Shown in pieces: positions 4,870-15,472 of a stretch of 17,871 bases of DNA. This DNA comes from Promethearchaeota archaeon. GTDB lineage: Archaea; Asgardarchaeota; Lokiarchaeia; Sigyniarchaeales; SOKP01. Location: the NCBI GenBank assembly GCA_013375475.1, contig JABXKD010000070.1, forward strand, positions 1 through 17,871, in the 5' to 3' direction. Every line of letters starts with the position of its first letter. Position 1 is the stretch's first letter. The notes beneath the pieces are model-generated. The model ran no database searches and was not told where the DNA came from. It saw nothing but the letters and a program-made list of their open reading frames with translations. The position numbers were made by a program, and so were the translations under genes.

Positions 4870-5106
4870 TTATTTTACAGCTTCGAAATACATGTGCCAG
4901 AGCTCTTCATCGTCGAGAAAATCCGTTCCTAAGTGCTTGTGCTTAGTCTTTGCTAAATCACGTGGAACCGATTCAGATGCTGGCTTATAGTCTGTTATTA
5001 CTTTTAACACGGTACCTGGTCGCATTTTCATGAGTTGTTTTTTGGTTTTTAACGCAGGTACAGGGCAGACTAAACCGCACACGTTTAATTCTTGGTCGAA
5101 ATTCAT
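4870..5106 (-). CDS. tusA: TusA/SirA-family sulfur carrier (copy 2)
   Basis: LNVCGLVCPVP (CPxP persulfide motif), M.PG.VLKVITD, 78 aa, SD-like AGAGGT upstream. Confidence 0.9.
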   Translation of the reverse strand: MNFDQELNVCGLVCPVPALKTKKQLMKMRPGTVLKVITDYKPASESVPRDLAKTKHKHLGTDFLDDEELWHMYFEAVK

Positions 5107-5145
5107 AATTTATACCTCTTATTTTTTTAATATGTTTTTAATTCA

Positions 5146-7611
5146 TTAATCTTCACATAAAGGTGAAAATCTTGGTTCTTCTAAACCCGGTTCAACATTC
5201 ATCTCAATTTGATTCAATTGAACTAATCGTAAAGCTTCGTAGCGAACTTTTTTGGTTTCTAAATTTAAGGTTTTTGAAATGTTGCTAATCGTGGTTGGAC
5301 CTTGAAGGGTTACATAATCTAAAACTTGTTGTCGTGGAGTTTTCTCTAAGACTTCCATTTCTCGTTTTGATTTAAGATTGATTGCTTTCTTTAATTCGTC
5401 CTCGTTAACAGTGCCCTCTTCGAATGACCCTTGAGCTATGGACTTTTCAATGATTTCTTTTCCTCTTTCTGTCCACGCTACGACGGTTGTGAAGCCTTGC
5501 TTGGAACCAACCTCTCCTGCCGTGAAATCGGAATAAATTGCAGGAAAATCCTGGCAATGAGAACAATAATGATTGCAACTTAAACACCGTCTAGCTTCGG
5601 CTAACGCCATATCTTCAGTAAACATTGCTTCGATTTCCTCAAAATTCCATTGGATGTCTTCGGTAGCTTCTTCTAAAGATTCTGGTTTTAATGAATAATC
5701 CTTAGGAGTTCTTGTAATTCCTTCAAAAAACATTTTATTTTGCCTATAGCGCCCCTTTGATAAATCCTCTCCCTTTAAGTATCGATCAATAGAAATAGCC
5801 GCTTCTTTACCATGGGCTATTGCCGCAATTGCAACTGCTTTCGAGTGAGTAATGGTATCTCCACCTGCAAAAACTCCCGGAATGTTGGTTTCAAAAGTTA
5901 TCGGATCGATCTCGATTTTATTGTGTTCCTTTTTGAGTTTATTGCCCGTAGCAATGTCAATCAAATTGAAATCAACGGCTTGACCAACGGCAATAACTAT
6001 AGCGTCTGCTTTAATTTCATAATCAGAACCCTCAATTTTATTGATTGAGCGTCTCCCAGTATTATCTACCTCTCCTTTTTCGATTTTGTAGCTATTTAGA
6101 ACTAATGTCTCACCTTCTCCTTTGCTGATTTTTGATACTGAAGTTTCAAAATGATATTCCATGAACTTTAGTTCTTCTTCAGGAATTTCTCGAAGTACGA
6201 GTTCAAGATCCTTTTCATTCATTATGTCGACAAGGTGGATTTTTTCTGCTCCTAGCCTCAGAGCTGTCTGTGCAACATCAACTGCAACGGGACCACCGCC
6301 TATTATTCCAATTGTTTTACCCTTAAATTCTTGCTGCTTCTGCCAATCGCGATATTTTCTATCTATAAGAAAATTGATAGCAACATGTACGTTAGGAAGT
6401 TCTTCTCCTTCTAAGTGTAAAGTCCGTGGTTTATACTGACCTGTTGCTATAAAAACAGCTTCATATCCATCATTTTTTAAGTCCTCAATCGTCATATCAG
6501 GTCCTAATGGTTTATTAAATACAATATCCACTCCAGCTTTTTTGATAGTCTCAACATCATAATCTAATACATAATCAGGTAACCGGAATTGAGGTACTCC
6601 ATATCGAAGCATACCACCAGTGTGATCAGTTTTTTCGAAAATTGTGGGAGAATAGCCTTTAAGCGATAAAAAATATCCTGCTGTAAGACCTGCCGGTCCA
6701 GCGCCTATTATCGCAACTTTCTTGCCTAATTTCTTCTTAATCTTCACACTCTTTTTTATATCTTGCTTAATTTCGTATTCTGTAATGAATTTTTTTAATT
6801 CTCTAATAGCGACAGGGTGATCCGAGCCGATTAAAGTACACCCGTGTTCGCATTCGTGCGTACAAATTCTTCCACATATAGATGGTAGTGGATTGTCATT
6901 GCGAATTAAATCTACAGCTTCCAGATATTTACCTTCTCTTATCAATGAGATATATCCTTGAGCATTAACACCCGAAGGGCAGCCTCCACAGCATGGCGAG
7001 CAGACTAAACCACGATCTGTTTCTGCAGTTCTCATGCTTGAGTTACAGAATAATCCAATTTTAAGGATATCTCGATTCATTTCTTCTCCCATTTCAGAAG
7101 CTCCTCTTATCTCACATGGAACTCCAACAATACCTACGGGTTCAAAATTATCTCCAGTTACCTCTACTAGCTTCTCTAAGACCCCAGATCTTCCATACAC
7201 GGCACCTGCGTTTTGAATCACATCTTCTGGATCAGTTACTCTGCTTGCTTTAGGTAAATCATCAATATTTTGGACCATCACGACTTCAGATAACTCCTTA
7301 TCTTTTAAGAGCTGTTTTGTAATTGTTGTGACAAATCCTCCGCTTGACGCTTTCTCTAGTATTTCAGAGTCCTTACTTCTTAAAGAATAAATTCCCAAAG
7401 GTTGAAGCTCTTTAAATTTTTTCTGCAATACTTGAGGGCAGTTTTGGTAACATTTACCACAATCTTGGCCTTCTCTTTCAAGGATACAATAATCTTTAAG
7501 TGTCGGTCGTAATGTTTCCATTTCAATATGCTTGCAATATCCTGCACATAGACCACAACCTTGGCATAAGCCCGCGTCAATAATTTCACTTCTTAATAAA
7601 TCAAAACTCAT
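5146..7611 (-). CDS. Chimeric Fe-S flavoprotein: 2x[4Fe-4S] ferredoxin + FrhB/FdhB (F420 hydrogenase beta-like) domain interrupted by a GltD/NfnB/SudA-like FAD/NAD(P) module + C-terminal winged HTH
   Basis: CQGCGLCAGYC and CGKCYQNCP. FrhB N-part: ASSGGFVT, AGAVY, VGVPCEI, KIGLFC. GltD module: SPCCGGCP, ICGRICTHECEHGC, IIGAGPAGL, GGMLRYGVPQFRLP, IIGGGPVAVD, FAGGD, EARRCLSC. FrhB C-part: CSHCQDF...DFTAGEVGSKQGFTTVVAWTERG. HTH: VLDYVTLQGPTTISNISKTLNLETKKVRYEALRLVQLNQI. Confidence 0.85.
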   Translation of the reverse strand: MSFDLLRSEIIDAGLCQGCGLCAGYCKHIEMETLRPTLKDYCILEREGQDCGKCYQNCPQVLQKKFKELQPLGIYSLRSKDSEILEKASSGGFVTTITKQLLKDKELSEVVMVQNIDDLPKASRVTDPEDVIQNAGAVYGRSGVLEKLVEVTGDNFEPVGIVGVPCEIRGASEMGEEMNRDILKIGLFCNSSMRTAETDRGLVCSPCCGGCPSGVNAQGYISLIREGKYLEAVDLIRNDNPLPSICGRICTHECEHGCTLIGSDHPVAIRELKKFITEYEIKQDIKKSVKIKKKLGKKVAIIGAGPAGLTAGYFLSLKGYSPTIFEKTDHTGGMLRYGVPQFRLPDYVLDYDVETIKKAGVDIVFNKPLGPDMTIEDLKNDGYEAVFIATGQYKPRTLHLEGEELPNVHVAINFLIDRKYRDWQKQQEFKGKTIGIIGGGPVAVDVAQTALRLGAEKIHLVDIMNEKDLELVLREIPEEELKFMEYHFETSVSKISKGEGETLVLNSYKIEKGEVDNTGRRSINKIEGSDYEIKADAIVIAVGQAVDFNLIDIATGNKLKKEHNKIEIDPITFETNIPGVFAGGDTITHSKAVAIAAIAHGKEAAISIDRYLKGEDLSKGRYRQNKMFFEGITRTPKDYSLKPESLEEATEDIQWNFEEIEAMFTEDMALAEARRCLSCNHYCSHCQDFPAIYSDFTAGEVGSKQGFTTVVAWTERGKEIIEKSIAQGSFEEGTVNEDELKKAINLKSKREMEVLEKTPRQQVLDYVTLQGPTTISNISKTLNLETKKVRYEALRLVQLNQIEMNVEPGLEEPRFSPLCED

Positions 7612-14732: not shown

Positions 14733-14741
14733 TTTTTTCAA

Positions 14742-14974
14742 CTTTTTTAGTTATTTTTTTTATTTTTTCTCTTTTTATACCAAATAAAGTTTATATTTGA
14801 TATTCCTTGTAGATTTAAAATGCAGACCAGTATTTAAATCATAGTTTTTTTGTTTATAAGAATCGCTTTTATCTATAAAAAAAACTAAATAGATCATAAG
14901 TAGTAGTGAAAAAAATTATAAGGATGTATTCACTATTTTATAATTAATAATAAAAAAAAATTTGAGTTTTTACA
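14742..14974. promoter_or_regulatory. Divergent promoter region (tusA operon / Lrp regulator) with three inverted repeats
   Basis: Very AT-rich, with several TATA-like boxes on both strands. IRs: GATTTAAA-N13-TTTAAATC (14812-14840), TAGTTTTTTT...AAAAAAACTA (14842-14887), TAGTGAA-N18-TTCACTA (14904-14935). The exact TATA box cannot be assigned. Confidence 0.55.
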
Positions 14975-15472
14975 ATGGTAACCGATAATACCAAACCTAT
15001 AGAGATAGACGAGATTGATAGAGAAATCTTGGATTTATTACAAAATGATGGAAAAATCACAATAAACAAGATTGCTGAAATGGTATCAGCAAAGTTAAAA
15101 CAAAAACCAAAAAGTGCGACTGCAATCAGGGCTCGCGTTCAAAAATTAGAGGAAACTTTAATTAAAAAGTATGTAGCTTTAATAGATTGTCGTCATTTGG
15201 GATATCGAGAAATGGTCATGGCATCATTGAGAATTAACTCACAAGAACCAATTGAAGAAGTGAAAACAAAAATAGAGAAAATGGAAAAAATCAAATACGG
15301 TTATGTAGTGACCGGAGAATACCCTCTTTTTATCATGGCTAAGTGTTTAGACCATGAGGACTCTATGAGACTAATTGATCAATTACGAAACCTTCCAGGA
15401 GTAGAAGAAGTTAAAACTCAAATTGTTCTGGATCGGATTAAGGAAGACACTACAATAATCATTCCTGAATAG
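14975..15472 (+). CDS. Lrp/AsnC (FFRP) family transcriptional regulator
   Basis: IDEIDREILDLLQNDGKIT...IA...S.TAIRARVQKLEE..IKKY.ALID...LG, and an AsnC/RAM domain with VTGEYPLFI and LRNLPGVEEVKTQIVL. Confidence 0.93.
   Translation: MVTDNTKPIEIDEIDREILDLLQNDGKITINKIAEMVSAKLKQKPKSATAIRARVQKLEETLIKKYVALIDCRHLGYREMVMASLRINSQEPIEEVKTKIEKMEKIKYGYVVTGEYPLFIMAKCLDHEDSMRLIDQLRNLPGVEEVKTQIVLDRIKEDTTIIIPE

Follow-up and report, generated by a model that had tools for sequence, protein, structure and literature searches.

Described systems related to the locus

HdrABC is the textbook electron-bifurcating enzyme of methanogens, and the role of its many homologues in non-methanogens is a long-standing question. 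Here we analysed a gene cluster of a Promethearchaeota archaeon (assembly GCA_013375475.1, contig JABXKD010000070.1), in which a predicted methanogen-type HdrABC, provided with a hydrogenase-less input arm, is encoded beside sulfur carriers of the TusA and DsrE families. One Hdr homologue now has a defined conserved context, which points to carrier-bound sulfane sulfur as the class of its substrate. The stretch that was analysed, called the window in the following, is one entire contig (17,871 b) of a genome of 3.92 Mb in 288 contigs, rated 100% complete with 6.4% contamination. Genes were called with the open reading frame (ORF) listing, Pfam and NCBIfam. The cluster consists of 12 minus-strand genes, all in one direction, and of a divergent plus-strand Lrp/AsnC gene (Table 1). 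The gene order and the coordinates given in the initial annotation were confirmed, and so was its description of the host as Asgard-like, in that close homologues of the 413-aa MvhG-like protein come from metagenome-assembled genomes labelled Lokiarchaeota/Promethearchaeota; the host genome belongs to the Lokiarchaeia (Promethearchaeia).

The solved HdrABC-MvhAGD complex (5ODC) shares with the locus full-length and close HdrA, HdrB, HdrC and MvhD, the Fe-S wire of MvhG and the compact order hdrCBA-mvhD-mvhG. It differs in that the locus encodes a fused, Cys-free stub in place of the Ni-binding large subunit, has FrhB or FrhB::GltD as donor and carries attached TusA and DsrE-family genes, in an organism with neither Mcr nor recognisable synthesis of coenzyme M (CoM). 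A second known complex, Elp-Hdr of Methanothermobacter marburgensis, is reported to be F420H2-dependent, to be made under Ni limitation and to use a dead truncated FdhA as scaffold for an FdhB-type F420H2 oxidase (PMC12350162). The design, as reported there, is the same (an MvhD-type connector leads to HdrABC from an FdhB/FrhB-type flavoprotein and a truncated, catalytically dead scaffold), the resemblance being one of design only. In the locus, on the other hand, the scaffold appears to come from MvhG/MvhA (Oxidored_q6) and not from FdhA, no molybdopterin-oxidoreductase domains are present in the window, most Lokiarchaeia (Loki) versions add an NADPH-type module within FrhB and, as far as the genome shows, the acceptor cannot be the heterodisulfide of CoM and coenzyme B (CoM-S-S-CoB). 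Elp-Hdr is a precedent for a swap of the donor module around a dead catalytic scaffold.

Hdr-type genes linked to tusA and DsrE-family genes are described for the sHdr-LbpA system (PMC11094781, PMC4175335), and a DsrE2B-type protein is also contained in the dsrE3A-dsrE2B-tusA cluster of Metallosphaera. Compared with these accounts, the locus represents a different lineage, having a single HdrCB pair, a long HdrA, MvhD and no LbpA in the cluster, and its direction is likely reductive. The DsrEFH/TusBCD-DsrC/TusE relays have in common with the locus three paralogous subunits, an invariant DsrE Cys and TusA as likely donor; DsrC trisulfide reduction by DsrK offers the further parallel of a CCG-domain enzyme as possible final reductase. 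Unlike in these relays, neither DsrC/TusE nor DsrAB accompanies the locus (see below), and the reductase would be a soluble bifurcating HdrABC, whereas DsrMK is membrane-bound.

For one Asgard archaeon, Nerearchaeum marumarumayae, a published model already sketches persulfides of TusA/DsrE as substrates of Hdr (bioRxiv 10.1101/2025.07.22.663070, Fig. 5A legend), with a [NiFe] hydrogenase of group 3c as the electron donor. The claim of a candidate new system in the initial annotation was thus overstated, as the core idea stands in this 2025 preprint, with a hydrogenase as donor. In the text available, the preprint describes neither the MvhG-like/FrhB::GltD module and its distribution nor the missing DsrC. 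In our literature search, whose scope did not extend to supplementary gene tables, this preprint was the sole Asgard link between Hdr and TusA/DsrE. In the text available, the paper on Promethearchaeum syntrophicum MK-D1 mentions one 'MvhADG-HdrABC' hydrogenase only and no sulfur carriers (PMC7015854), and the sulfur papers of the Dahl laboratory (e.g. PMC11094781) treat neither Asgard archaea nor canonical HdrABC. New here are the input arm, which lacks a hydrogenase but keeps a relic of MvhA, the insertion architecture of FrhB and its variation, the linkage counts and the gene order of the Thorarchaeota. The operon boundary, by which TusA2 (the TusA encoded at the end of the hdr genes) is singled out, and the absence of DsrC/TusE across the lineage are new as well.

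The Hdr core

The type of Hdr was assigned by means of NCBIfam cut-offs and PDB matches. HdrB scored 365.6 bits with the CoB-CoM HdrB equivalog TIGR03288, above the cut-off of 345.15, and aligned over residues 7-289 with the methanogen HdrB chain 5ODC_B (E 8.4e-91). PF02754 was matched in two stretches, and the CCPAPG and CCGAGGG motifs and the CxxC pairs are invariant in the HdrB alignment. HdrC passed its own equivalog cut-off (Table 1). HdrA, 671 aa long, aligned with 5ODC_A across residues 19-660, and the NCBIfam HdrA models matched it under their cut-offs (736.7 bits vs. 1100). The sHdrA of sulfur oxidisers (6TJR) matched residues 333-582 only, with 133 bits. The cluster holds a single hdrC and a single hdrB, plus mvhD, whose product has seven Cys columns invariant in 13/13 sequences. 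The Pfam scan of the window gave no GCV_H (GcvH/LbpA) domain, in agreement with the absence of lbpA from the window noted initially; elsewhere in the genome, two GcvH-family genes were found, one of which adjoins GcvT. The one hdrCB pair, the long HdrA, the partial match to 6TJR and the lack of lbpA in the cluster rule out an sHdr identity, and by these criteria HdrABC-MvhD is classed as methanogen-type, i.e. canonical, as initially proposed.

Hdr-type enzymes are reversible in methanotrophs, and the cluster might accordingly be thought to oxidise sulfane sulfur on TusA/DsrE in an sHdr-like manner, with electrons passing to NAD(P)+/F420 aided by reduced ferredoxin. The presence of tusA and dsrE beside hdr, reported as a hallmark of sHdr clusters (PMC11094781), is in favour of such a function. 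The features of HdrA, hdrCB and lbpA listed above, with one of the two distant GcvH genes sitting with GcvT, and the description of the cultured relatives as anaerobic syntrophic fermenters (PMC7015854) are against it, and we regard an oxidative role as very improbable.

The Hdr repertoire of the genome was found to be unusually large. CCG domains were matched 39 times, in about 20 loci, and MvhD-like sequences about 10 times, and at least 9 loci are HdrA-like. On another contig (C277), an 848-aa HdrA::MvhD fusion adjoins MvhG and MvhA.

The input arm

In a 12-sequence alignment of the MvhG-like protein, 13 Cys are invariant, all of them within the first 190 residues. Beyond residue 189 there is no Cys, and the C-terminal half, though Cys-free, is strongly conserved (GATDKL, GNFFRFTL, AGNMNLSN). 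In the PDB profile search, residues 2-263 aligned with full-length MvhG/VhuG (9SW2_E, 2.4e-21; 5ODC_E, 1.6e-19), so that the extra part amounts to only about 150 residues. In a profile comparison with the genome's own MvhA, residues 266-324 aligned with MvhA 40-98, which is the N-terminal Ni-binding region; the RVCGLC of MvhA is replaced by GLLGGA and the Ni-binding CxxC is gone. The extension gave an hhalign score of 32.9 (P 5e-4) against a 30-sequence MvhA alignment, while 150 column shuffles gave 16.1 ± 3.0 with a maximum of 26.3 (0/150 reached 32.9) and the reversed alignment gave 17.4. With moderate confidence, the extension can be taken as a putative MvhA remnant devoid of metal ligands, which matches the label mvhG/A' of the initial annotation. 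The AlphaFold model of the protein is poor (mean predicted local distance difference test score 55; below 50 in the Fe-S region and in parts of the extension). For residues 262-413, the top matches in the ESM Atlas were unnamed clusters, and NiFeSe_Hases fragments reached 0.87, under the 0.9 mark, which makes them a lead only.

No match to PF00374, the [NiFe] large subunit, was found by Pfam in the window, and the extension is devoid of Cys, so that the cluster encodes no functional hydrogenase large subunit, as claimed at the outset. True [NiFe] large subunits are encoded on other contigs of the genome, and MvhA proper is present in 57 of the 61 genomes sampled from the family. The cluster is therefore an additional, hydrogenase-less Hdr and not the Mvh-Hdr of the organism.

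The 821-aa protein encoded next shows, in Pfam, FrhB_N at residues 75-146, Fer4_20 (PF14691) at 191-284, Pyr_redox_2 (PF07992) at 297-601 and FrhB_C at 652-736. In the PDB, residues about 200-681 matched NfnB/GltD/StnC-type chains (9BOV, 9N5U, 8OH5, 4YLF), the GltD-like module scoring 5e-69 with 4YLF_B and 6e-66 with 5JCA_L; residues 3-173 matched FrhB/Fsr-N-type chains (8RJA_E, 7NP8), residues 683-759 matched FrhB chains, and the solved chains that best matched the FrhB part were 8RJA_E and 8RIU_B. The protein is thus predicted to be an FrhB fold interrupted by a complete NADPH-type module with FAD and two [4Fe-4S] clusters. Both modules of the frhB::gltD initially annotated are present, but they are not fused end to end, since the GltD/NfnB module sits inside FrhB.

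The insert was surveyed in 86 retrieved loci with an MvhG-like gene, some genomes being retrieved by two routes. The GltD insert was present in 69 of them. A plain FrhB was found in 9 (5 of Thorarchaeota type and 4 of Loki type, two of the latter being one place retrieved twice), and FrhB was partial or cut at a contig end in 8, H. repetitus included. Just downstream of tusA2, one genome (G140) encodes a second FrhB::GltD paralogue (L164:3-2191). The C-terminal tail of FrhB, of about 60 aa (residues about 760-821; window 5146-5330, minus strand), is winged-helix-like, and the tail of a Thorarchaeota FrhB (L165:6376-7446) gave a weak PheRS_DBD1 match (E 5e-4).

Conservation of the linkage between Hdr and the carriers

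The link between the tus/dsr and hdr genes in relatives was followed in 400 genomes of the phylum, with the dsrE2B-like gene and the MvhG-like protein as markers and with the outputs cross-tabulated by hand. A close orthologue of the MvhG-like marker was found in 72 genomes, and in 54 of these the two marker genes lie on the same contig, 4-6.5 kb apart. In 8 genomes they are on different contigs, in at least 4 cases with the locus cut by a contig end. The remaining 10 gave no dsrE2B-like match; 7 have the marker within the first 4 kb of a contig, and 3 end inside or just after the hdr genes. A clear counter-example to the linkage was not found among the 72 genomes, 13 or 14 of the 18 without visible linkage being placed at contig ends as far as checked. 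When 20 regions around the dsrE2B-like gene were inspected, 12 contained the whole cluster in the same order (with FrhB shortened in two).

In one further region of the 20, from a class-level relative (L050, G128:C5:1369700-1389600), the gene immediately downstream of the dsrE2B-like gene belongs to another Hdr, whose cluster includes a TusA. Its hdrC-hdrB are 32-34% identical. They are followed by HdrA-like pieces in at least 4 sets and by two MvhD genes, and the tusA is embedded there; the arrangement resembles an HdrA array amplified in tandem.

When the contigs of named genomes were scanned for the pattern of the 413-aa alignment, 72 loci were retrieved, all labelled Promethearchaeota/-ia or other Asgard. 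All 12 genes were present in 39 of them, many loci being truncated. The cluster is found in L. ossiferum B35, P. syntrophicum MK-D1, H. repetitus and S. springense; its presence in cultured P. syntrophicum MK-D1 and L. ossiferum makes the function proposed below directly testable. In MK-D1, a second, divergent hdrC-hdrB-hdrA, 41-44% identical, lies directly upstream of tusA1 (L148:3-3039, minus strand), so that the relay genes are flanked by two Hdr systems.

The genes that flank the cluster in the window recur in just 0-20 of 100 loci, while the Lrp gene is kept next to or within the cluster in relatives. The conserved unit is therefore tusA1 through tusA2 plus Lrp.

Seven genomes of another family, which the source names of identical or similar proteins assign to Thorarchaeota, encode an MvhG-like protein 34-41% identical, extension included. 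Here the order is DsrE-family gene-hdrC-hdrB-hdrA-mvhD-mvhG-like-plain 356-aa frhB-tusA-dsrE-dsrF-dsrH, complete in 2 of 5 retrieved loci and partial or different downstream in the other 3. Its junctions measure 19-22 nt, with GGAGG and without T-tracts, as expected of one tight operon. The link between Hdr and TusA/DsrEFH outlasts this rearrangement between two Asgard classes, and this persistence is the strongest argument for a functional tie between Hdr and the carriers. The proposal thereby withstands one of the refuting conditions set initially, namely that the tus/dsr genes would be found apart from hdr in relatives.

The same counts bear on the idea that Hdr and relay genes are adjacent by chance or history, without functional relation. 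The oligo-T tracts of the Loki-type clusters, which suggest separate transcripts (see below), would fit it. It is opposed by the 54 linked genomes of 72, with the remainder explained by contig ends where checked, by the non-conserved flanks and by the Thorarchaeota, which keep the link in a different order and in a tight operon; we consider a fortuitous association extremely improbable.

The sulfur carriers

Both TusA copies scored above the PF01206 cut-off and contain the CPxP cysteine (CPMP in tusA1, CPVP in tusA2). DsrEFH is made of three paralogous subunits (PF02635 twice and PF04077). Cys16 of tusA1 is conserved in 19/19 orthologues, Cys82 of DsrE (VVGCSTW), its candidate active site, in 14/14, Cys56 of DsrF in 14/14 and Cys102 of the dsrE2B-like protein (FPCQMTM) in 21/21, while DsrH has no conserved Cys. 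With the NCBIfam DsrE2 equivalog NF047629, the dsrE2B-like protein scored 56.6 bits, far under the cut-off of 210, and its closest solved relative was 2QS7 (E 9e-21), a protein called DsrE2B by the Dahl laboratory (PMC11094781). The DsrE2 of the initial annotation is then a carrier of the DrsE_2 family but not a DsrE2 equivalog; it is probably of the soluble DsrE2B type.

TusA2 is 56-97% identical between Loki- and Thor-type clusters, and its second cysteine (C-x3-CPxP) is present in 53 of 62 distinct sequences. The cysteine pair is suggestive of a redox pair that would not be essential. The prediction of a complex of HdrB, HdrC and TusA2 gave scores of 0.01 and 0.00, as compared to a mark of 0.32, and carries no weight either way.

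Missing partners and other sulfur genes of the genome

DsrC/TusE (PF04358) was not found in the genome, nor in any of the 101 genomes of the order (39 of high quality), while the E. coli control was positive. The presence of DsrEFH without DsrC/TusE throughout an order implies an undescribed acceptor of the relay. In addition, mcrA (MCR_alpha), ComA, sulfopyruvate decarboxylase (ComDE) and the NIR_SIR sulfite reductase domain were not found in the genome. The absence of mcr, dsrAB and dsrC/tusE, initially noted for the window, consequently holds genome-wide, and the check for CoM synthesis agrees with it. The search for MnmA returned weak PP-loop matches of 22-26 bits, over the first 34-78 profile positions, with a positive control in all 14 genomes.

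Two further DsrEFH sets are encoded elsewhere in the genome. On one contig (C265; L054:10954-13303, plus strand), tusA and a YeeE/TsuA-type Sulf_transp transporter are followed by dsrE-dsrF-dsrH. A few kb away (L054:1-7138, minus strand), HdrC-like and HdrB-like proteins, an FdhA-like molybdopterin oxidoreductase and a 437-aa [NiFe] small subunit with a partial large subunit are encoded, and a FocA-type formate channel lies between the two sets. On another contig (C88; L055:7610-13102), a CoADR/Npsr-like pyridine-nucleotide disulfide reductase is fused to TusA and two rhodanese domains in a protein of 795 aa, whose gene adjoins an HdrD-like (Fer4 and CCG) gene and IscU/IscS genes. Because the tusA-YeeE/TsuA-dsrEFH locus and the Npsr/CoADR-TusA-rhodanese fusion occur in the same genome, the handling of sulfane sulfur and thiosulfate is, judged from gene content, a theme of this genome. 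The possibility that a YeeE-type transporter or an Npsr-type reductase travels with the cluster was rejected (0/100 loci).

These genes also bear on a biosynthetic explanation, by which the carriers would belong to assimilatory sulfur trafficking (Fe-S clusters, thiolated cofactors, tRNA) and their nearness to the Fe-S-rich Hdr would be indirect. The lack of a sulfite reductase domain, the YeeE/TsuA-type transporter with TusA and DsrEFH elsewhere in the genome, the several relatives in which no Hdr accompanies the dsrE2B-like gene and tusA, and the reductive sulfur assimilation proposed in the available text of the preprint 10.1101/2025.07.22.663070 are all consistent with it. DsrC/TusE, however, is the hand-over protein of the bacterial Tus route to tRNA and was not found in any of the 101 genomes of the order, and a linkage to this particular Hdr that is kept through rearrangement would be unexpected of a housekeeping route. 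For these reasons, we judge this explanation to be quite unlikely. One sub-case, in which Hdr merely makes sulfide for assimilation, as the Nerearchaeum preprint reads it, shares its chemistry with the mechanism that follows.

Proposed mechanism and points against it

We propose that the cluster encodes a soluble, flavin-based bifurcating complex of the HdrABC type, in which the hydrogenase input module would have been replaced. The path of the electrons is modelled on the solved Mvh-Hdr, Fdh-Hdr and Elp-Hdr complexes. Electrons from F420H2 would enter at the FrhB-type flavoprotein and, in most Lokiarchaeia, those of NAD(P)H could also enter via the NfnB/GltD-type module inside FrhB. They would then pass through three [4Fe-4S] clusters of the MvhG-like subunit, whose MvhA partner would be left only as the fused, nickel-free stub, and would continue through the [2Fe-2S] of MvhD to the flavin of HdrA. 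At this flavin the pair would be split, one electron going to ferredoxin and the other through HdrC to HdrB. As its substrate, HdrB would use sulfane sulfur (or a di- or trisulfide) bound to the co-encoded carriers, and H2S would be released; this substrate is proposed because Mcr, recognisable CoM synthesis and DsrC are all missing. TusA2 would be the likeliest carrier, loaded via the DsrE2B-type protein, DsrEFH and TusA1. The complex might serve as an electron sink and/or for the supply of sulfide, and thiosulfate or polysulfide, taken up by systems encoded at other loci, might be the source of the sulfur.

The action of HdrB on a persulfide or disulfide bound to TusA/DsrE, as the initial annotation had it, is an inference. 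An HdrABC complex with a replaced input, whose HdrB uses carrier-bound sulfane sulfur or a di-/trisulfide (on TusA2), is the reading we favour, with confidence that is evenly balanced. A further step, namely that protein-bound sulfane sulfur, without DsrC, is the high-potential acceptor that drives the reduction of ferredoxin by NAD(P)H/F420H2, and hence an energy-conserving, hydrogenase-independent sink, is put forward tentatively and seems on balance doubtful. If true, cultured archaea related to the eukaryotic host lineage would possess a cytoplasmic sulfur-reducing sink, which would bear on hydrogen-sulfur syntrophy models. The input arm would be of a new kind, a dead hydrogenase used as Fe-S scaffold together with FrhB, with or without the NADPH insert, and metabolic models that lump the Asgard 'MvhADG-HdrABC' into one hydrogenase complex may need change.

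Several observations weigh against carrier-bound sulfur as the substrate and against a relay and an Hdr that work as one system. The first concerns transcription. From hdrC to frhB::gltD, the genes of the window are joined by overlaps or by gaps of 0-4 nt, and tusA2 follows 39 nt after frhB::gltD, with a ribosome-binding-like GAGGT in the gap; T6 and T7 runs lie 3' of its stop codon. The short gaps or overlaps initially reported for the whole cluster hold for hdrC-tusA2 and for tusA1-dsrH, but not for the 104 nt before the dsrE2B-like gene and the 47 nt before hdrC. The latter gap contains a TATA-like ATATATAAA and a long T-run. T-runs of 7-15 are present in this gap in 11/11 orthologous loci, and T6-7 runs follow dsrH in 10/10; in four named genomes of the wider order, the gap holds the Lrp gene or is longer. 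Oligo-T is an intrinsic terminator signal of archaea. Since it is conserved after dsrH and before hdrC, the Loki-type locus probably comprises three transcription units, tusA1-dsrEFH, the dsrE2B-like gene and hdrCBA-mvhD-mvhG-like-frhB::gltD-tusA2, and an obligatory co-transcription of relay and hdr in these clusters is unlikely. The conserved tract before hdrC therefore points to TusA2, and not to the whole relay, as the carrier firmly coupled to Hdr.

Sequencing runs add little to this. One RNA-labelled run (X1) covered the whole 15-kb stretch and its flanks at flat depth in one 20-kb contig; it may consist of genomic DNA or be the source of the record, and is silent on transcription. Two sediment metatranscriptomes of one study (X2 and X3), in which DNA may be present, gave contigs that resemble parts of the cluster at 90-95%. 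One of these, of 2.5 kb, spans tusA1 into the first 49 nt of hdrC, a contig not being equivalent to a single transcript and an uncovered flank carrying no weight. A scan with a bacterial model, which is not informative for an archaeon, gave 30 promoter-like sites as compared to 31.4 expected and 11 terminator-like sites as compared to 6.3 ± 2.2.

Further points concern the parts themselves. Relay genes lack a neighbouring Hdr in 7 of the 20 regions inspected, and the dsrE2B-like gene is present in 177 of the 400 phylum genomes, as compared to 79 for the MvhG-like marker, so that the relay is also in use where this Hdr is lacking. In TusA2, 8 of 62 distinct sequences are without the second cysteine, including MK-D1, some close relatives and 3 of 4 Thorarchaeota copies, which rules out the vicinal pair as an essential, DsrC-like redox pair. 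In H. repetitus, all that is left of FrhB::GltD is the two ends of the protein (query residues 1-86 and 760-815; L155:11283-11696). CofH was found only as a fragment, a 91-aa frame that matched profile positions 264-344 with 99.9 bits (C31:1283-1525), and the genome may encode F420 synthesis incompletely or in split form, or part of it may be unassembled; as CofE is present twice, the use of F420 in this organism is plausible.

The last point is HdrB itself, which is so close in sequence to the methanogen enzyme that a small-molecule heterodisulfide would fit at least as well as a protein-bound substrate. By this account, Hdr would act on an as yet unknown low-molecular-weight (hetero)disulfide or thiol cofactor of Asgard archaea, whose counterpart in methanogens is CoM-S-S-CoB, and the carriers would serve the synthesis or recycling of the thiol or some other task. 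The score of HdrB above the CoB-CoM equivalog cut-off, its alignment with methanogen HdrB and the occurrence of the relay without this Hdr agree with it, as does the reported high selectivity of methanogen Hdr, i.e. a narrow range of substrates (PMC13261682, in the text available). On the other hand, mcrA, ComA and sulfopyruvate decarboxylase are absent from a genome rated 100% complete, and no candidate thiol pathway is present inside the cluster. A small-molecule substrate also leaves unexplained why a TusA closes the hdr operon in two Asgard classes and why DsrE-family genes stand ahead of hdrC in three arrangements. We hold it to be unlikely, and retain the reduction of sulfur bound to TusA2 as the proposed reaction.

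Features of the locus and flanking genes

Table 1. Genes and intergenic elements of the hdr-tus/dsr locus; positions are those of the window.
Feature	Position	Strand	Description	Evidence
tusA1	14508..14741	-	Single-Cys TusA with CPMP motif, heads the relay block	PF01206, 78.9 bits
dsrE	14110..14487	-	TusD-like; start probably 14478	PF02635; orthologues of 122 aa
dsrF	13736..14158	-	TusC-like; start probably 14104	PF02635; TIGR03010, 44.6 bits, under cut-off
dsrH	13378..13719	-	TusB-like; zero cysteines	PF04077; TIGR03011, 53.6 bits vs. cut-off 49.2
dsrE2B-like	12848..13273	-	DrsE_2 family, predicted soluble sulfur carrier	PF13686, 81 bits; 2QS7, E 9e-21
Intergenic element	12801..12847	-	TATA-like box and long oligo-T run, probable terminator/promoter boundary	Sequence reading
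hdrC	12222..12800	-	Two [4Fe-4S]	TIGR03290, 174.7 bits vs. cut-off 160
hdrB	11304..12218	-	Two CCG domains (non-cubane cluster sites)	PF02754 twice; TIGR03288; 5ODC_B
hdrA	9288..11303	-	Full length; FAD, N-terminal and ferredoxin domains	5ODC_A, E 4.3e-194
mvhD	8839..9297	-	[2Fe-2S] connector	PF02662, 106.7 bits
mvhG-like	7608..8849	-	MvhG-like Fe-S protein (413 aa) fused to putative Cys-free relic of MvhA N-terminus	PF01058; hhalign
frhB::gltD	5146..7611	-	821 aa; NfnB/GltD module inside FrhB fold, short C-terminal tail	Pfam, PDB
tusA2	4870..5106	-	TusA of the hdr operon, C-x3-CPxP	PF01206, 66.6 bits
Lrp/AsnC	14975..15472	+	Lrp/AsnC-family regulator, divergent	PF01037, PF13404

Outside the conserved unit, the window encodes two NosD/beta-helix proteins (3-785 and 15794-16981, both plus strand), a URO-D-family protein, possibly a methyltransferase (1859-3124, plus strand), and a nitroreductase-family protein (822-1559, minus strand).

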